From: Candidatus Saccharimonadales bacterium
GTDB lineage: Bacteria; Patescibacteriota; Saccharimonadia; Saccharimonadales; OMJO01
Assembly (NCBI GenBank): GCA_035480035.1
Contig: DATIID010000001.1
Location: 201,323 to 265,322 of the forward strand
DNA: 64,000 nt
Direction: 5' to 3'
In this document: piece after piece, positions 3,399 through 37,556 of the stretch
Layout: every line of letters begins with the position of its first letter
Numbering within the stretch: position 1 is the stretch's first letter
The notes under the pieces: generated by a model
The model's input: only the letters and a program-made list of their open reading frames with translations
The model's database searches: none
What the model was told of the DNA's origin: nothing
Program-made: the position numbers and the translations under genes

Positions 3399-4025
3399 TT
3401 ACAACTCGTTTAATATGTTTTGATGGACGGTAGCTTTATCTGGTTCAGCATTGATCTCGACTACTTTGACCCCTAAATTAGATTGTTTCAAATACATTAG
3501 TCCGGCCATGTAGCCCTGACGGACATGCAAATGGTAATCTGACCCCTTTTTTTCAAAATAATCGGTATTGCCGCGGGCTTCACGCCGTTTATCAAGAATA
3601 CTTTGGGCGGCGGTAAGATAAATTAATGTATCAATCTGTAAACTTTTGACCATGTCCAAGCAGGACATTAAAGCTTCGTCTTTATTTGTCATTTGACTAG
3701 CAAAGGCGTTATAAGCGACCATAGCCAACGGACTGCGGTCAATGATTATCATTTCTTTAGATTTACGGTCATTAATATCTTCAGCAAGTGCTTGGCACAT
3801 GGCCCGGGAAATATAAAAGTCGGTTTGACCAGAACGTGGTAAATCGTCATTCAATGAAACTTGTCGCAGCGCTTCACCAATTGGCGTACCGCCAGACATT
3901 CGAGTAGCGTGAACGGTTTGACCCTGCATGTTAAAATACTCGGTTAAAAGCTTAACTTGCGAGGATTTGCCAGCTCCGTCAGGACCATCAATGGCAATTA
4001 CTCGGTTGTGGGCTTCAGCACTCAT
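3399..4025 (-). CDS. tmk: Thymidylate kinase (canonical bacterial type)
   Basis: P-loop IAIDGPDGAGKSSQ, TRMSGGTPIGEALR (TREPGGT-like) and a DRS (DRY-type) motif. The gene starts 9 nt after the rplA stop. Confidence 0.85.
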   Translation of the reverse strand: MSAEAHNRVIAIDGPDGAGKSSQVKLLTEYFNMQGQTVHATRMSGGTPIGEALRQVSLNDDLPRSGQTDFYISRAMCQALAEDINDRKSKEMIIIDRSPLAMVAYNAFASQMTNKDEALMSCLDMVKSLQIDTLIYLTAAQSILDKRREARGNTDYFEKKGSDYHLHVRQGYMAGLMYLKQSNLGVKVVEINAEPDKATVHQNILNEL

Positions 4026-5056: not shown

Positions 5057-5485
5057 TTATTCGACTTCTACGCCCATACTTCGGGCCGTTCCAGCCACCA
5101 TTTTCTTAACCGCTTCAATGTCATCGGTATTCATGTCGCCAGCTTTGGCTTCGGCAATTTCTGTTAAAGCATTCTGCGATAGCTTCTTACTGACCTTTTC
5201 ACTGTTTGGTCGGCCTGAACCTTTCTGAATACCGAGTTTTGCCCGGATTAAATCATCAGTTGGTTCACCAACTACTCGAAAACTCATTGTTCGGTCTTCA
5301 TAAATAGCAATATGAACAGTTAAGTTCTTACCTTGTAAATCCTTGGTTCGTTCATTGAATGGTGTAACAAAGTCCATCATATTAACACCGTATTGACCTA
5401 AGGTACTACCAACAGGCGGTGCGGCACTAGCTTGACCGCCCCGTAATTTCATCTTTAAATTAGCTGTAATCTTCTTTTCTGCCAT
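5057..5485 (-). CDS. rplK: 50S ribosomal protein L11 (uL11)
   Basis: Hallmark AAPPVGSTLGQYGVN. Canonical position upstream of rplA. Confidence 0.95.
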   Translation of the reverse strand: MAEKKITANLKMKLRGGQASAAPPVGSTLGQYGVNMMDFVTPFNERTKDLQGKNLTVHIAIYEDRTMSFRVVGEPTDDLIRAKLGIQKGSGRPNSEKVSKKLSQNALTEIAEAKAGDMNTDDIEAVKKMVAGTARSMGVEVE

Positions 5486-5531: not shown

Positions 5532-5747
5532 TCACCCCTGTTGTCTAGCGAAAGCTTTACTAAGATAATAGCTGGCAGTGGCAAAAGTTGTGGCCGCAAT
5601 AGCCGGTTCATGAGCCAAAGTTGCCAATAAAGTTAAACCACCAAGCGCCATGACTTCTGGAGTGGCCATTTCCCGGATACTAACATCAGTTTCAGTAATA
5701 ATTGAATTTATTTCGTATGCAATTATGCGGTCTTCGATTTCACTCAT
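5532..5747 (-). CDS. Hypothetical 71-aa protein with a hydrophobic C-terminal half, lying between nusG and rplK
   Basis: ATG ORF with no recognisable SD and no motif I recognise. It could instead be part of an rplK leader. Confidence 0.3.
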   Translation of the reverse strand: MSEIEDRIIAYEINSIITETDVSIREMATPEVMALGGLTLLATLAHEPAIAATTFATASYYLSKAFARQQG

Positions 5748-5763
5748 GAATATTAACCGCGAA

Positions 5764-6306
5764 TTACACTCTTTTTACTTGCAAACTGTCAAGCTCGACT
5801 GGGGTTTCGCGGCCGAACATATTAACCAAGACCTTAAGCTTGCCCTTTTGGGGGTCAATTTCGTTGATTGAACCGTCAAAGCCTTTAAACGGACCATCAG
5901 TGATACTAACTACTTCACCAACGTTAAAGTCAATCTTATGCTTTGGTTCTTCACGGCCCATCCGCTTCATAATTTTTTCCATCTCATCGTTTTCAATTGG
6001 GCTCGGCTCGGAACCACTGCCAACGAAACCAGTGACTGATGGTGTATTACGAACAATGTACCAGGCATCTTCACTCATTTTCATCTGGACTAACACATAA
6101 CCCTGAAAAATACGCTTCTCAACAACTTTGCGTTTACCATTTTTAACTTCAATCATTTTCTCTTTTGGCACTAACACTTGAAAAATCTTGTCTTTCATAT
6201 CCAAACTTTCAGCCCTTTGCCGGATAGATTCAGCTACTTTTTCCTCATAACCACTGTAAGTGTGGATAGCGTACCATTGTTTGGATGTATCATAACGTTT
6301 ACTCAT
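5764..6306 (-). CDS. nusG: Transcription termination/antitermination factor NusG
   Basis: NGN domain (WYAIHTYSGYE) and KOW motif (GPFKGFDGSI). Follows secE. Confidence 0.95.
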   Translation of the reverse strand: MSKRYDTSKQWYAIHTYSGYEEKVAESIRQRAESLDMKDKIFQVLVPKEKMIEVKNGKRKVVEKRIFQGYVLVQMKMSEDAWYIVRNTPSVTGFVGSGSEPSPIENDEMEKIMKRMGREEPKHKIDFNVGEVVSITDGPFKGFDGSINEIDPQKGKLKVLVNMFGRETPVELDSLQVKRV

Positions 6307-28211: not shown

Positions 28212-28585
28212 TATTTAGTCTCCTTCTTAACAGGTGGCTTTTTAGCGACTCGTTTTTCACCGTCAACCACCACACGAATGTGGGAACTTCGTCGTTGGAA
28301 CGGCAAAGCCCGTCCGCGGGCAGCTGGCCGATAACGTTTGAGCGAGCGGCCGCCAGTTACACTAATTTCGACAATTTGTAGACTCTCAGGTTTGTAACTA
28401 TGGTTATGGTCAGCGTTAGCCTTAGCGCTCTCGATCGTCTTCTTTACAGCCATAGCAGAACGTCGTGGAGTATGTTCTAAAATTGTAATTGCATCTTTAA
28501 CTGAACGACCTCGCACTAAAGCCGCTACGACGCTAACTTTACGAGGACTAATTCGAACGTTTTTGGCTACGGCTAAAACTGACAT
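28211..28585 (-). CDS. rplV: 50S ribosomal protein L22 (uL22)
   Basis: uL22 core (RISPRKVSVVAALVRG). Confidence 0.95.
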   Translation of the reverse strand: MSVLAVAKNVRISPRKVSVVAALVRGRSVKDAITILEHTPRRSAMAVKKTIESAKANADHNHSYKPESLQIVEISVTGGRSLKRYRPAARGRALPFQRRSSHIRVVVDGEKRVAKKPPVKKETK

Positions 28586-28863
28586 TAGGCGGTGCCTCCC
28601 TTGGCCATTTTACCGCCATGTCGACGGAATTTCCGGGTTGGTGAAAATTCACCTAACTTATGGCCGACCATGTTTTCGGTCACAAAAACTGGCACATGAA
28701 CTTTGCCGTTATGAACAGCAATGGTCCGACCGACAAAATCAGGTGAAATCGTAGAGGCTCGAGCCCAGGTTTTTATGATGGTTCGATCTTCCGCACCTAA
28801 AGCTGCAACTTTCTTAGCTAATTTAGGGTCGATAAACGGGCCTTTCTTCAGCGATCTACTCAT
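28585..28863 (-). CDS. rpsS: 30S ribosomal protein S19 (uS19)
   Basis: [12 protein letters not shown]... N-terminus. Confidence 0.97.
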
Positions 28864-29123
28864 GACTTTAACTCCCTTACTTGGCTCATTGGCATATCAA
28901 TTCCCAGACCGTACCAAACGCCCTGGCCTAGGTTTTTATGAATCTGGTCTTTATCTATTGCTTCGATAACTCGTCTTCCCACTTCTATATGGAGTTGGAA
29001 TGGTGCGTTAGTATAGACAAGCGCGTCTTTCACAGCGTTACCAATCTGCTCACCTGCAGCCAATAAATCATGTCTGGCTCGATCTTCGTGTTTAGTCATT
29101 TCGTCTAAAGTTTTGCCTTCCAT
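28860..29123 (-). CDS. Hypothetical 87-aa protein inserted between rplB and rpsS
   Basis: The ATG lies 2 nt after the rplB stop, with GAGGAG 6 nt upstream. The TGA overlaps the rpsS ATG (ATGA). The ORF exactly fills a 262-nt gap that is normally near zero. No motif recognised. Confidence 0.6.
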
Positions 29124-29125
29124 AA

Positions 29126-29962
29126 TTATCTCCTCTTAGCCGTATGCCGGCTCCTGACAATAAACTTAGTGGAAATCTTGCGGCGACGGGTCTTATAGCC
29201 CAATGTCTTCTGACCCCACGGTGTTCGTGGTGCTTTGCCCATACCGTGTCTACCGCCGTCACCACCACCATGCGGGTGGTCAGCGGCGTTCATAACTACA
29301 CCACGGACTGACGGACGGATGCCTTTTAGCCGGTTACGACCAGCCTTGCCGATCTTGATGTTCTGGTGTTGAACGTTGCCGATTACACCAATACTGGCAC
29401 TACATTCGACACTAACCATTCGAACTTCACCGCTAGGCAAGCGAATTTGGGCATAATCACCCTCTTTAGCCATTAGTTGAGCACTGTTGCCCGCCGAGCG
29501 AACCAATTGAGCACCCTTGCCAGGAATAAGTTCAACAGCGTGAATCACGCTACCAACAGGAATATTCTTTAGTTTGAGTCGATTGCCGGGTTCAATAGCT
29601 GACTCTTCGCCGGATACAATTTTGTGGCCAACTTTCATGATACTAGTAGCCAAAATATAATGATATTGACCGGTATTATCCTTAATTCGAGCAATCCGAG
29701 CGCTACGGTTAGGGTCATATTCAATGGCTTCGACGGTGGCTGTTAAGTTTGGCTGTAAGTTGAAGTTAACCAAACGATAAAACTGACGAACTCCGCCGCC
29801 CTTGTGACGGGTAGTAATACGACCTTGATTATTGCGACCGCTAGTCTTTCGTTTAACGGTCACCAATGACTTCAAGGGTTTTTTGCTGGTAATGCGTGCA
29901 AAATCTTGCGTTGTCATGCCACGACGTCCAGGTGTCGTCGGATTATAGGTTTTAATGGCCAT
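29126..29962 (-). CDS. rplB: 50S ribosomal protein L2 (uL2)
   Basis: uL2 hallmarks (GRNNQGRITTRHKGGG, HPHGGGDG). Confidence 0.97.
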   Translation of the reverse strand: MAIKTYNPTTPGRRGMTTQDFARITSKKPLKSLVTVKRKTSGRNNQGRITTRHKGGGVRQFYRLVNFNLQPNLTATVEAIEYDPNRSARIARIKDNTGQYHYILATSIMKVGHKIVSGEESAIEPGNRLKLKNIPVGSVIHAVELIPGKGAQLVRSAGNSAQLMAKEGDYAQIRLPSGEVRMVSVECSASIGVIGNVQHQNIKIGKAGRNRLKGIRPSVRGVVMNAADHPHGGGDGGRHGMGKAPRTPWGQKTLGYKTRRRKISTKFIVRSRHTAKRR

Positions 29963-30324: not shown

Positions 30325-30980
30325 GATTTAGCCTCGACTTTTGCCTTAGCTTGACCAAGCCATTCCGAGATAATACCTAAAGCCTTCTGACTGATTATAA
30401 TCTGATCGGCGTTAAGGATATCATAAACGTTTAAATACTTCGCTTGGACGGCCTTGACGTTGCTTAGATTTCGAGTGGCTCTTTCGACTAGCTCATTTTT
30501 AACACTCACCACAATTAAAACATTACCTTTAGCCTCCAGCTTCTCAAGTAATTTTACGGTTGACTTAACTAACCCATCCTTGCTATCAAATGTCTCTATA
30601 ACTTTAAGTTGGTCAGATTTGGCAGCTAAGCTTAGGGCTTGACGAAGGGCTTGACGTTTGGCTGACTGGTTAAGTTTATGTGAGAAATTTTCTTGACCAG
30701 TTGGCCCAAAGACAATACCACCGCCACGCCAAATTGGGTTTCGTGACGAGCCAAAACGAGCTCGGCCGGTACCTTTTTGGCGCCATGGCTTACGGCCACC
30801 ACCCCGAATTAGCCCGCGGGTCTTTGTAACCGCCAAATTACTTCGACCATTGGCTAGATATGTAACATAAGCTGCTTTTAGTGAGTCGTGGTTTTTTATT
30901 GTTAAGTCAAAAATTGACTTATCTAATTTAATGCTAGCCGAGGCTTTATTGCCAGACTTAGTGTAAGTACTGACACTCAT
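30321..30980 (-). CDS. rplD: 50S ribosomal protein L4 (uL4)
   Basis: uL4 loop region (GGGRKPWRQKGTGRAR). Confidence 0.95.
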   Translation of the reverse strand: MSVSTYTKSGNKASASIKLDKSIFDLTIKNHDSLKAAYVTYLANGRSNLAVTKTRGLIRGGGRKPWRQKGTGRARFGSSRNPIWRGGGIVFGPTGQENFSHKLNQSAKRQALRQALSLAAKSDQLKVIETFDSKDGLVKSTVKLLEKLEAKGNVLIVVSVKNELVERATRNLSNVKAVQAKYLNVYDILNADQIIISQKALGIISEWLGQAKAKVEAKS

Positions 30981-31591
30981 GACCCTATACCCCTAACAAC
31001 TACAATACTTTTACGAGGACCTGGTACTGCTCCAGAAACACCAATGACATTTAGCTCTGGATCAACCAAAGCAATGGATAAATTCTTAATAGTCACTTGT
31101 TCATGACCCATCTGGCCGGCCATTTTCTTACCTTTTAGGATGTGTTGGGGATACATTGAACCAATTGAGCCGGGACGTCGATAACTACGACCACCGTGCG
31201 TTTTACGACCACGATGAAAATTATGCCGTTTAATTGTGCCGGCAAAACCCTTACCCTTACTAGTGCTCGTAACATCAACCTTGTCACCAACATTAAAAGT
31301 GTCGGCTCCTAAACTTTGGCCGACACTGATGTCTTCTGAGATGTCATTGACTCGAATTTCGCGCGCAATCTTTGGCATTATTTTGGCTTTCTTGAAATGA
31401 CCGCTAAGCGCCTTGCCGAGATTTTTGGTCGTTTCACTGCCGAGTTGAATAGCTTGATAACCATCGTTATCGGTGGTTTTTATTTGAGTAACTACATTTG
31501 GGTTAACCGATAAAATAGTGACAGCTTGAACAGCACCGTTATCACTTATGGTGCTAGTCATGCCAACTTTTCGAGCAATTAAAGCCTTCAC
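30977..31591 (-). CDS. rplC: 50S ribosomal protein L3 (uL3)
   Basis: GTG start. MKALIARKVGMTS... and the FAGTIKRHNF motif. Confidence 0.95.
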   Translation of the reverse strand: MKALIARKVGMTSTISDNGAVQAVTILSVNPNVVTQIKTTDNDGYQAIQLGSETTKNLGKALSGHFKKAKIMPKIAREIRVNDISEDISVGQSLGADTFNVGDKVDVTSTSKGKGFAGTIKRHNFHRGRKTHGGRSYRRPGSIGSMYPQHILKGKKMAGQMGHEQVTIKNLSIALVDPELNVIGVSGAVPGPRKSIVVVRGIGS

Positions 31592-31762: not shown

Positions 31763-32053
31763 TTACTTTAAGACTCGTAAATATATGCCGACTTGTGACC
31801 AAAAGCCGATCAACATTGAGATAAGCAGTATCACATATTCTAATTTACGATCAATCTTAAATTTATCTCGACTGGCGATAATCAAACCAATAATTAAACC
31901 CACCGGAAGTGGCAATTGTTTAGTCGCGTCAACATTAACTAATCGGACCCATTGAAAACCAACTATCAAATATATGACCAATTTTAGAAAAAACGCCCCG
32001 TCGGCTTCTGTTTGGGTGTATTTACGCTTAACTGTTTTAGACATTAGTAACAT
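31763..32053 (-). CDS. Hypothetical small membrane protein (96 aa, ~3 TM helices)
   Basis: Three hydrophobic segments. Lies between rpsJ and rplC. No SD seen. Confidence 0.55.
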   Translation of the reverse strand: MLLMSKTVKRKYTQTEADGAFFLKLVIYLIVGFQWVRLVNVDATKQLPLPVGLIIGLIIASRDKFKIDRKLEYVILLISMLIGFWSQVGIYLRVLK

Positions 32054-32083
32054 TAAAGCACATGCTTAAATATTTGTGGGATT

Positions 32084-32767
32084 TTAAGGAGTCGTTAAGC
32101 ACTCGATGTGCTCATCAATTAAACCGTTTACAATTTCTTTATCAATTGAACGCCATGGGTGTAAATCACCTAAGTTTCCATTAACACCATCTAGCGCTAA
32201 GACTTGCCCGTCGTGCTTATCACCGGGCGTTATGGCTACCCCAGTGAAAAGCGGCACGATAGTAGCACCAGGTTTTTCTTTAGTTTGACCTTCGGGTGTA
32301 TAGCCATTTAAGTCATATGGTGTATCCCGTAAACAGCTGTTGGTTTTGGCGGCAATCTCATGTTCATCATGACGATCCAATTCACCAAGCCAACCAATAA
32401 CACCTTTGCCATCATATTTTGGCCAACCGTCAGGCGGATTAATGTAGGTCATATTATATCTAGCAACAAAATTTGATTGTTGATAGTTATCATTAGCGTT
32501 AACTCTTATGGCTTCACGAGCTTGACGAGTGAATTCCGGCGTTGGTTTTGGCATATGGCCAAAAAAACCAGTATTTTGTTGAATCGGCACAGTAGCAACC
32601 AGAGCTGCAGCTAAGACCAAAGCTCCAATCCGGTGATTACGTACACGGTGTTTTTCAGGACTAAATTGGTCTTTAGCGATATCAAGCAGAGTCGGATCTT
32701 TTGCAATGACTCTAGTATCTGCGTCTTGATCATAGAGCATCGTTCCATTGCCTTCGGATTTAGTCAT
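32084..32767 (-). CDS. Hypothetical single-pass membrane protein (227 aa) with an extracytoplasmic C-terminal domain
   Basis: TM helix IGALVLAAALVATVPI at aa ~47-62. No recognised catalytic motif. Lies between rpsJ and rplC. Confidence 0.65.
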   Translation of the reverse strand: MTKSEGNGTMLYDQDADTRVIAKDPTLLDIAKDQFSPEKHRVRNHRIGALVLAAALVATVPIQQNTGFFGHMPKPTPEFTRQAREAIRVNANDNYQQSNFVARYNMTYINPPDGWPKYDGKGVIGWLGELDRHDEHEIAAKTNSCLRDTPYDLNGYTPEGQTKEKPGATIVPLFTGVAITPGDKHDGQVLALDGVNGNLGDLHPWRSIDKEIVNGLIDEHIECLTTP

Positions 32768-32779
32768 ACTTTAATTTGA

Positions 32780-32808
32780 ATTATAGACTTTGATTTTGGG
32801 TTTGGCTA
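32780..32808 (-). promoter_or_regulatory. Candidate promoter for the inserted 227-aa gene
   Basis: Minus strand reads TAGCCA (32803-32808, overlapping the rpsJ stop), a 17-nt spacer, then a perfect TATAAT (32780-32785) 12 nt before the ATG. Confidence 0.35.
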
Positions 32809-33225
32809 CATCTTGATTTCGGCATCACAACCAGCTGGCAGTGATAGATTCATAAGCGAATCAATGGTCTTGGTGGTTGGGTCAGTAATGTCAATTAAAC
32901 GTTTGTGAACCCGCATTTCAAACTGTTCACGGCTTTTTTTGTAAACATGTGGACTTTTAATGACTGTGTAAACTGTTTTTTTAGTTGGTAGTGGAATTGG
33001 ACCAGAAATCGTTGCGCCAGTACGAAGGGCAGTATCAATAATTTGCTTAGCCGACTGGTCAATTACCTTATGATCATATGCCTTTAGACGGATCCTAATC
33101 CGCTGCTTAACTGGTGCGTCAGCTTTTTTGGGTGCGTCTTTTTTGATTGTTACGTGAGCTTTGGCTGGCGATTCAACTGACTTTGTATCTTCAACTTTAT
33201 CTGCAGCTTGTTTAGCTTCGGCCAT
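32806..33225 (-). CDS. rpsJ: 30S ribosomal protein S10 (uS10) with a ~40-aa K/A-rich N-terminal extension
   Basis: uS10 core [19 protein letters not shown]... AAGGAG lies 5 nt upstream of the ATG. Confidence 0.93.
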
Positions 33226-34675: not shown

Positions 34676-35188
34676 TTAGACGGCCCGTAATTTATCATAT
34701 TGTTCAACTCGGTTTTTTTCGTCAACCAGCTCAACCGATAAATTGCCTTGGTTAGCTAAGTATCTTAAAGCTTTTTGGCCATAAGAAGCCCATTTCAAAG
34801 CTAATTCTGGATCTTCAAGTCTAGTATAACCAAGATCGTAATACTGCCAATTGTCATCATCTGAAATCGATTGGTCAGGGTGGACAATGGTGGTGGCGAT
34901 AATAATATGGTCTTCGGTTAATAGCGAATGGGTTTGGTACTCACCACTACCAATTTGACGTTTTTGAATATCAAACAATACACCTCTAAAAAAATAACCT
35001 TCATCAGTATAATTTTCAATGTCTTGATCATCAGGTAATACAATTTTGGGCAAGGTTAATGGGTTTAGATTGTCAACGTAATTAGTTATTAAATCACGCG
35101 CTAGCTGGCCGAGTAGTAATTTGGTCTCGTCTGAGGCCTCTAAATACATCTCAAGCATAGCCTGCGGTTCAGTTGGCAAATCCTCCAT
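34676..35188 (-). CDS. Hypothetical acidic protein (170 aa) between fusA and tuf
   Basis: Clean ATG ORF, D/E-rich, with no TM segment, no recognised motif and no clear SD. Confidence 0.65.
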   Translation of the reverse strand: MEDLPTEPQAMLEMYLEASDETKLLLGQLARDLITNYVDNLNPLTLPKIVLPDDQDIENYTDEGYFFRGVLFDIQKRQIGSGEYQTHSLLTEDHIIIATTIVHPDQSISDDDNWQYYDLGYTRLEDPELALKWASYGQKALRYLANQGNLSVELVDEKNRVEQYDKLRAV

Positions 35189-37322: not shown

Positions 37323-37556
37323 TTACTGTTCCTCAGCTGTTAATCTAGCTAATTCTTCTAACATACCTAAGTGTTCACCAGAATCGTTAACATCACGTCC
37401 AGCAGACCTAACTTCGTTTCTTGCCAATATTTGACTGATAAAACCCCCCGCTTCAAGCCGTCTTGCATAAGCTTCATCCAAACGATCTTCAGCCGCGTTC
37501 ATTTGTGCACGCGCTGCTTCAAGATCTGGACTGATGAGACCTGCCTCGCCAACCAT
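37323..37556 (-). CDS. Hypothetical 77-aa helical A/E/R-rich protein wedged between rpsG and fusA
   Basis: The ATG overlaps the rpsG stop by 1 nt (TAATG). Its TAA is immediately followed by the fusA ATG (TAAATG). Its 3' end supplies the GAGGAA SD for fusA. Confidence 0.55.
   Translation of the reverse strand: MVGEAGLISPDLEAARAQMNAAEDRLDEAYARRLEAGGFISQILARNEVRSAGRDVNDSGEHLGMLEELARLTAEEQ

Follow-up and report, generated by a model that had tools for sequence, protein, structure and literature searches.

In a 64-kb stretch of a Candidatus Saccharimonadales metagenome-assembled genome (TM7; candidate phyla radiation (CPR)/Patescibacteria), hereafter the window, the ribosomal-protein genes rplB and rpsS are separated by an open reading frame (ORF) of 87 codons, which we call ORF-X and whose sole exact database entry is 'hypothetical protein VLF39_01370'. 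Its sequence conservation indicates that ORF-X is a real gene, and we propose that it is probably a translated coupling-relay gene that occupies a hot spot of insertion and whose acidic, helical product is dispensable. Translation of ORF-X, its coupling, its dispensability, its mode of spread and any function of its product are what we infer from sequence. Going beyond the original prediction, which had singled out ORF-X at this one junction, we found that it is one of many unrelated acidic junction ORFs, is absent in about 90% of related species and has a second example between rpsG and fusA.

In the window, the minus strand carries the str, S10 and spc clusters of ribosomal-protein genes. 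In the direction of transcription, the rplB-rpsS junction contains the following features:

29126..29962, minus strand: rplB (uL2, 278 aa), whose last codons, AAG AGG AGA TAA, contain the Shine-Dalgarno sequence (SD) of the next cistron
29130..29135, minus strand: GAGGAG, SD of ORF-X, inside the rplB 3' end and 6 nt upstream of the ORF-X ATG
28860..29123, minus strand: ORF-X (87 aa, isoelectric point (pI) 5.7), occupying the rplB-rpsS gap
28872..28878, minus strand: AAGGGAG, SD of rpsS, within the final ORF-X codons and 8 nt upstream of the rpsS ATG
28860..28863, minus strand: ATGA, stop/start overlap of ORF-X and rpsS (-4 spacing)
28585..28863, minus strand: rpsS (uS19, 92 aa), 78-96% identical to relatives

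The rplB stop codon (29128..29126) is followed by TT (29125..29124) and the ORF-X ATG (29123..29121), and the ORF-X TGA (28862..28860) overlaps the rpsS ATG (28863..28861). The original prediction had described an ORF that exactly fills a gap of 262 nt and is coupled at both ends, with its ATG 2 nt past the rplB stop, GAGGAG 6 nt upstream in the rplB 3' end, a TGA overlapping the rpsS ATG and AAGGGAG in its last codons; each of these statements proved correct to the base. Both ends of ORF-X show the short distance or overlap and the upstream SD of a termination-reinitiation coupled pair. The rplB 3' end, AAGAGGARRTAR, is conserved and acts as SD for whichever cistron comes next: in insert-free relatives the motif equivalent to GAGGAG lies 1-18 nt ahead of rpsS and serves rpsS. 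The locus has the architecture of a relay, in which ORF-X borrows the upstream SD and in turn provides rpsS with a new SD and a stop/start overlap.

We envisage that ribosomes ending rplB would re-initiate 2 nt downstream at the ORF-X AUG via GAGGAG, the SD that serves rpsS where no insert is present, translate the 87 codons, terminate at the UGA overlapping the rpsS AUG, behind the SD in the last ORF-X codons, and re-initiate on rpsS. With such a relay, the insert would leave the chain of coupled cistrons unbroken and uS19 stoichiometry would be preserved. The ORF-X product would be soluble and acidic, a small protein of four helices whose synthesis roughly matches that of ribosomal proteins. 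Termination-reinitiation coupling is known in ribosomal-protein operons, with rplK/rplA and S10-operon examples (PMC12548453). Both ends of ORF-X resemble these cases in their overlapping or 1-4-nt stop/start spacing and in the SD within the upstream cistron. The known cases, however, join two conserved genes, whereas here a variable extra cistron would act as the relay.

We considered that the gap might be a non-coding spacer or structured RNA (a leader, small RNA, terminator or promoter island) with a fortuitously open frame, or that it might be an assembly artefact. Nothing apart from the missing annotated function speaks for this. Any frame was open in just 0.8% of shuffled versions of the 262-nt gap sequence. 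A promoter scan found none in or beside the gap, and a terminator scan gave one terminator-like match in the scanned stretch, inside rplB and within chance expectation, and none in the gap. The gap had no Rfam match at the gathering score or at E <= 1, in particular to the leaders of ribosomal-protein operons, and its RNA folding is ordinary (z = 0.18). The rplB|ORF-X|rpsS architecture recurs in independent assemblies (ENA, JGI, Logan, NCBI), which argues against an artefact. The frame is also kept in seven diverged homologues, described next, and this conservation effectively refutes the non-coding explanation, to which we assign a next to negligible probability.

When 1.84 billion cluster representatives were scanned exhaustively with phmmer, the relatives P0002 and P0004 were recovered, and word-indexed profile searches of 5.8 billion proteins added P0006, P0007, P0008 and P0009; P0007 and P0008 are the ORFs of the metagenome loci L107 and L128. 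Altogether seven homologues of 85-91 aa are 17-40% identical to the window protein, and their flanks are 86-95% (uS19) and 73-90% (uL2) identical to those of the window. Across both collections the family was found solely at the rplB|rpsS junction. In every contig read, the spacing is the same for the family, 8 members in all: the ORF starts 2 nt past the rplB stop, and its end shares 1 or 4 nt with the start of rpsS. The original prediction had named a frame not conserved in relatives sharing the enlarged gap as the outcome that would count against it; instead, the homologues agree with ORF-X in position, length and coupling. No second copy of ORF-X was detected in the window by blastn or tblastn, the protein searches gave no paralogue, and ORF-X is the sole member of its protein cluster. 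P0003 (3698 aa, E = 3e-7) and P0005 (3082 aa, E = 7e-4), giant tandem-repeat proteins from two unrelated metagenomes, were rejected as relatives: their matches span 33-39 residues inside tandem repeats, and we judged them to be repeat-inflated chance matches.

Selection was estimated from Nei-Gojobori counts of nonsynonymous (dN) and synonymous (dS) divergence. The closest pair of family members with DNA, L128 versus L133, gave:

ORF-X: dN 0.38, dS 1.29, dN/dS 0.30
rpsS: dN 0.015, dS 1.08, dN/dS 0.01
rplB: dN 0.047, dS 1.57, dN/dS 0.03

At nonsynonymous sites ORF-X thus evolves about 8-25 times faster than its neighbours do, and dN within the family reaches 0.9-1.0. For the window and L081, the proportions of nonsynonymous and synonymous differences were pN 0.40 and pS 0.72, the latter saturated. 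Because dN/dS is low (about 0.3) and pN lies below a saturated pS, the counts indicate purifying selection on the ORF-X protein, weak compared with that on its flanks. R17, G28, G68 and P78 are invariant in the family; A23, G24, Q26, I27 and W70 are kept in its closer members, W70 in most.

AlphaFold2 returned the same model of ORF-X from 4 and from 7 sequences (pLDDT 87 and 89, pTM 0.75-0.76), predicting a four-helix protein with helices at residues 5-37, 42-57, 63-73 and 79-84. The invariant residues are located in or between the predicted helices, where they may serve as helix-packing or turn positions. Searches of Pfam and NCBIfam gave 0 matches at E <= 10, and a sequence profile search of the PDB gave only a beta-agarase at E = 1.1. 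Foldseek found no significant match in the PDB, and a fold search of BFVD found none either (best E = 2.5). PADLOC assigned 0 families and PHROGs matched one member only (E = 0.027). By these searches ORF-X falls neither among anti-phage defence or phage protein families (PADLOC, PHROGs, BFVD) nor, by profile or solved chain, in a known family of ribosomal proteins or ribosome-assembly factors. The homology and structure searches that the original prediction had suggested were productive in one respect, yielding seven homologues at the same junction, and not in the other, as they gave no known family or fold relative. Chains of bS20 top the Foldseek list for ORF-X, and the two share a length of about 87 aa and an all-helical structure; we rejected bS20 as a fold relative because the match is not significant (E = 1.7, probability 0.28, TM 0.44, root-mean-square deviation 7.7 A, 13% identity). 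bS20 is a strongly basic protein, whereas ORF-X is acidic.

We collected 80 Saccharibacteria species genomes through uL2, to which the window uL2 is 64-78% identical; in 79 of them the rplB-rpsS gap was measurable. Of these 79, 70 have a gap of -1 to 18 nt (median 3), as anticipated by the original prediction, which had taken small spacing to be normal, and nine have one of 87-388 nt. Six of these nine (L006, L010, L034, L040, L041 and L044) have one gap-filling coupled ORF of 76-129 aa; two (L014 and L049) carry a 150-nt AT-rich imperfect palindrome that is still an open, coupled ORF of 49-50 codons, and one (L078) has a 26-codon ORF. Gaps of more than 150 nt occur in 8 of the 79 species at rplB-rpsS, compared with 0-1 at each of nine other S10-operon junctions. 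As about 90% of related species are without any insert, ORF-X is presumably dispensable.

Metagenomes were then scanned with a pattern consisting of an rplB 3' end, a gap of 255-315 nt and an rpsS 5' end, which is blind to reading frame. Of the 48 loci that the pattern matched, 47 have one ORF of 85-110 aa that spans 97-100% of the gap and is coupled at both ends; from shuffles, 0.61 open gaps would be expected. Together with the conserved frame of the homologues, this count bears out the earlier statement that the geometry is unlike that of non-coding spacer. Relative to the rplB stop, the ORF starts lie at -1 to +4 nt, 43 of the 47 at 0-4 nt. An ATGA overlap with rpsS is present in 26 of the 47, and the rest end +8, +1, 0, -1 or -6 nt from its start. 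Ahead of rpsS, within -18..-4, 51 of 56 insert-bearing loci have a core SD, compared with only 11% of interior control windows. The variable offset between the rplB stop and the ORF start means that a fixed frame relation with rplB is absent, and we therefore rejected a read-through or frameshift fusion with uL2. The only one of the 48 loci without an intact ORF is L112 (Ga0182031_1410039), whose 270-nt gap reads as a twice-frameshifted ORF colinear with ORF-X and may be a decaying copy or a sequencing error. L112 was not accepted as a family member, its match to the family hidden Markov model (HMM) being non-significant (7.6 bits, E = 0.24).

The junction ORFs share a protein composition that DNA composition would not predict. 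The pI is below 6 in 55 of 56 (median pI 4.8, median net charge -6), Lys makes up 2.7% of residues versus 7.4% in the ORFs of the window, and there is an enrichment of Glu, Ala and Gly. Per 100 aa, the net charge is -5.8, against +7.1 for shuffled gap DNA and +11.7 for the alternative two frames, and GNN codons account for 41% of codons versus 26% in shuffles. GC richness was rejected as the cause of this Ala/Gly/Glu-rich, Lys-poor composition, since the gaps are poorer in GC than their flanks in 54 of 55 loci. Because the acidity is opposite to what DNA composition predicts, we conclude from these sequences that the gene-sized junction ORFs are shaped by selection on the protein. The short palindromic-element ORFs, by contrast, are rich in Lys, Asn, Ile and Phe, and such short repeat inserts seem merely to be kept open.

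Despite their common character, most junction ORFs do not resemble one another. BLAST clustering of 59 of them gave about 40 groups, of which 30 are singletons and the ORF-X group has six members. HMM iteration against 10x shuffled decoys gave no between-group signal above the decoys, and hhalign profile-profile comparison of 9 sub-families gave none above reversed-sequence controls. Two motifs that had seemed shared by eye, a mid-helix G-x-x-x-G and a C-terminal F-x-x-G-h-x-x-G, were dropped, both analyses being at background level. Similarity is also uncoupled from host divergence: the ORFs of L091, L092 and L044 are dissimilar (Smith-Waterman z < 2) although flank dS is only 0.7-1.0, whereas those of the window and L081 are similar at z = 28 with a flank dS of 1.5-2.4. 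In a neighbour-joining tree of uL2 and uS19 the insert-bearing lineages are scattered, and the sister pairs L008/L014, L002/L006 and L010/L016 differ in insert presence. With unrelated genes of the same type at one junction in different lineages, we conclude that these patterns reflect inserts repeatedly gained, replaced and lost, and not one gene drifting apart.

These comparisons bear directly on whether all inserts descend from one ancient orthologous Saccharibacteria gene that diverged past recognition and was often lost. The same position, size range (76-129 aa), acidity and coupling everywhere would fit such a history, and the dN of 0.9-1.0 within the ORF-X family means that similarity can fade. 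Against it stand the uncoupling of similarity from host divergence, the HMM iteration and hhalign results at the level of decoys and reversed controls, and the close sister lineages that differ in insert presence; we consider a single origin quite improbable.

One weak signal in the flanks hints at how the inserts may move. The last 90-150 nt of the window rplB (29126..29275 for 150 nt) are most similar to those of L081, L112 and L107 (ranks 1-3 of 127); L081 and L107 are ORF-X carriers and L112 is the doubtful relative mentioned above. In distal rplB, by comparison, L107 ranks 82nd of 107, and it is among the most distant loci both there and in the rpsS 3' half. The similarity at the rplB 3' end could have been left by joint transfer of the ORF and the adjacent flank. 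Since Saccharibacteria are naturally competent (PMC10187176), homologous recombination via the highly conserved flanks is a plausible route of spread for the insert. The junction can be compared with other variable-gene hot spots. Cassette-type loci flanked by conserved genes and exchanged by homologous recombination are a general concept. The rplB|rpsS junction shares with them a fixed site, many unrelated occupants, a patchy distribution and conserved flanks as possible homology arms, and differs in that its borders are without recombinase or attachment-site repeats.

Inserts of this kind also occur, though rarely in the S10 operon, at other ribosomal-protein junctions. The following are open and coupled or fitted exactly between their neighbours:

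37323..37556, minus strand: second junction ORF of the window, 77 aa, pI 4.45, Ala/Glu-rich, filling the rpsG-fusA gap exactly
L044:3520-3831: rplW|rplB insert, 103 aa, pI 4.25, open and coupled at both ends
L029: rplV|rpsC insert, 75 aa, pI 4.9, open and coupled at both ends
L036: rplP|rpmC insert, 57 aa, open and coupled at both ends

The rpsG-fusA ORF begins with an ATG that shares bases with the rpsG stop (TAATG) and ends with a TAA directly adjoining the fusA ATG, and fusA is preceded at 7 nt by GAGGAA; a Pfam search gave no match. This junction was visible in just two relatives, L087 (907-1218) and L103, which have unrelated acidic ORFs of 103 aa and 88 aa there. L044 also carries the following insert at the rplB|rpsS junction:

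L044:3831-4220: rplB|rpsS insert, 129 aa, open and coupled at both ends

Two junction ORFs consequently flank rplB in this genome, and neither matched other junction ORFs.

Further orphan ORFs were seen between the conserved genes of the window. A 71-aa acidic orphan ORF (5532..5747, minus strand, pI 4.5) without a Pfam match lies between nusG (5764..6306) and rplK (5057..5485), with flanking gaps of 16 and 46 nt. Between fusA and tuf there is a 170-aa orphan ORF (34676..35188, minus strand, pI 4.3, net charge -18); relatives have other ORFs or none in this gap (L097, 125 aa, pI 5.1; L087, none over 48 aa). The genes rpsJ and rplC are adjacent in most bacteria. In the window, two orphan ORFs (31763..32767, minus strand) lie between rpsJ (32806..33225) and rplC (30977..31591), one of 227 aa and acidic, the other of 96 aa, hydrophobic and probably a membrane protein. 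The window uS10 itself has a 43-aa N-terminal extension, its Pfam match covering residues 44-138.

In some Saccharibacteria (L049, L014, L015, L022 and L030), several S10-operon junctions contain AT-rich imperfect palindromes of 80-160 nt. L049 has them in four junctions, at 3769-3928 and in rplC|rplD, rpsS|rplV and rplV|rpsC, with arms of 61 nt that are 72% complementary, and L014 has a copy at 3855-4007. The L049 and L014 copies examined and one from L015 each hold an open ORF of 38-50 codons, coupled at both ends and with its own SD. These palindromic elements (135-158 nt in L049 and L014) look like MIRU (mycobacterial interspersed repetitive unit), of which they would be a direct analogue. 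As a mobile repeat, MIRU integrates at start codons; it contains an ORF with -4-nt coupling, and its insertion is likely near-neutral for expression (PMC12548453, which cites Supply et al. 1997). ORF-X resembles MIRU as an intercistronic operon insert carrying an ORF coupled to both flanking genes (-4 ATGA). It differs in being gene-sized (262 nt, where a MIRU-like unit measures tens of bp to about 100 bp and is without protein selection), neither palindromic nor repetitive, and single-copy, where a MIRU-like element has several copies per genome (the 64-kb window and the protein searches were covered). It also differs in its protein-like sequence under purifying selection (dN/dS 0.30), its confident predicted fold and its homologues at one junction only.

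The palindromes raise the possibility that ORF-X, too, is pure translated filler, in which only an open frame and coupled ends matter and any constraint reflects the cost of a harmful peptide made at ribosomal-protein level. Every insert in these operons is open and coupled, including the 135-158-nt AT-rich palindromes that one genome carries in four junctions; the ORF families are unrelated and show frequent turnover, codon adaptation is poor, and MIRU is a precedent for insertion at start codons with -4 coupling (PMC12548453). ORF-X itself, on the other hand, has a dN/dS of 0.3 and invariant Gly, Trp, Pro and Arg residues despite saturated synonymous divergence, its fold is predicted with confidence, and gene-sized inserts are protein-like in composition whereas short repeat ORFs are rich in Lys, Asn, Ile and Phe. 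Pure filler overlaps the coupling-relay gene that we propose, the sole difference being the denial of any activity; we regard it as possible, though doubtful.

A dedicated ribosome-related factor was considered as well: a chaperone or escort for basic uL2 or uS19, or a peripheral ribosome-associated protein, made beside its client in equal amount. Small acidic dedicated chaperones are familiar from type III secretion and from eukaryotic ribosomal proteins. They share with ORF-X small size, acidity, little between-family conservation and a gene beside a basic or aggregation-prone partner; ORF-X differs from them in having no homology or fold match, and most relatives with the same putative clients are without the gene. 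An acidic, small, helical protein encoded and coupled exactly between two basic ribosomal proteins would suit such a factor, as would the purifying selection and the acidity common to unrelated families at rplB|rpsS and other ribosomal-protein junctions. The gene is missing, however, in 70 of 79 related species with nearly identical uL2 and uS19, and its site is occupied by many unrelated families. Similar ORFs at rpsG-fusA, rplW-rplB and rplV-rpsC mean that a particular client is not implied, and the searches gave no significant match to a ribosomal protein or assembly factor, the best being bS20 (E = 1.7, TM 0.44). We consider a dedicated factor unlikely. That ORF-X is acidic, presumably dispensable and fast-evolving is some evidence against a core ribosomal role.

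Within the coupling-relay gene as we propose it, the sequence of ORF-X would be constrained mainly for fold, solubility and negative charge, and any specific activity would be accessory. It seems to us roughly a toss-up whether the product is an accessory protein that is tolerated or weakly beneficial and owes its constraints to very abundant synthesis. That it interacts specifically with basic ribosomal proteins or with the ribosome appears rather improbable; our leading guess at an activity is a non-essential interaction with basic partners, for example nascent uL2 or uS19. Several points weigh against this proposal. GC content at third codon positions is 0.36 in the gaps versus 0.51-0.61 in the flanks, and the codon usage is untuned for a gene expressed at ribosomal-protein level. 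The case for independent family origins proceeds from missing similarity, for which a common origin with episodic, very fast divergence offers an alternative account. Recombination through the flanks is suggested by one weak signal. Finally, a dN/dS of 0.3 and a confident fold would fit a specific function equally well, so that a tolerated passenger and an accessory factor are inseparable on these data.

The S10/spc/str cluster is a textbook case of frozen gene order, and its concatenated genes are a standard marker for genome phylogeny and binning. Turnover of unrelated protein-coding genes inside it is unexpected and easily overlooked because junction ORFs are annotated as 'hypothetical' orphans. 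Full-text literature searches found no description of ORF-X or of the junction-ORF pattern, and neither a survey of CPR ribosomes (PMC9297842) nor one of archaeal ribosomal-protein clusters (PMC10833476) describes a junction ORF or the pattern; the C-terminal uS19 extension reported in Parcubacteria (PMC9297842) is unrelated to ORF-X. The pattern is apparently undescribed before, akin to coupling-preserving intercistronic inserts and with an unusual, testable population-level signature. More speculatively, and in our estimate improbably, specific junctions (rplB|rpsS, rpsG|fusA and others) in the most conserved and most highly expressed Saccharibacteria operons could be slots for small acidic proteins, in which unrelated mini-genes are repeatedly born or captured, expressed at ribosomal-protein level by relay and swapped between lineages via flank recombination. 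If true, the slots would serve as a nursery of new genes or as a hypervariable accessory layer, with decoys against ribosome-targeting toxins or phage factors as one example, and a new kind of variable locus would lie hidden in a universal phylogenetic-marker gene cluster.

For annotation of CPR genomes, junction ORFs should neither be merged into uL2 or uS19 nor discarded. Because cultured Saccharibacteria are naturally transformable (PMC10633639), the predictions made here are directly testable. The junctions amount to a natural experiment on the dependence of an operon on unbroken translational coupling, in that all inserts, of any origin, are open and coupled, and to a second one on the selection that acts on a new protein suddenly made at ribosomal-protein level, where all would turn acidic and lysine-poor.

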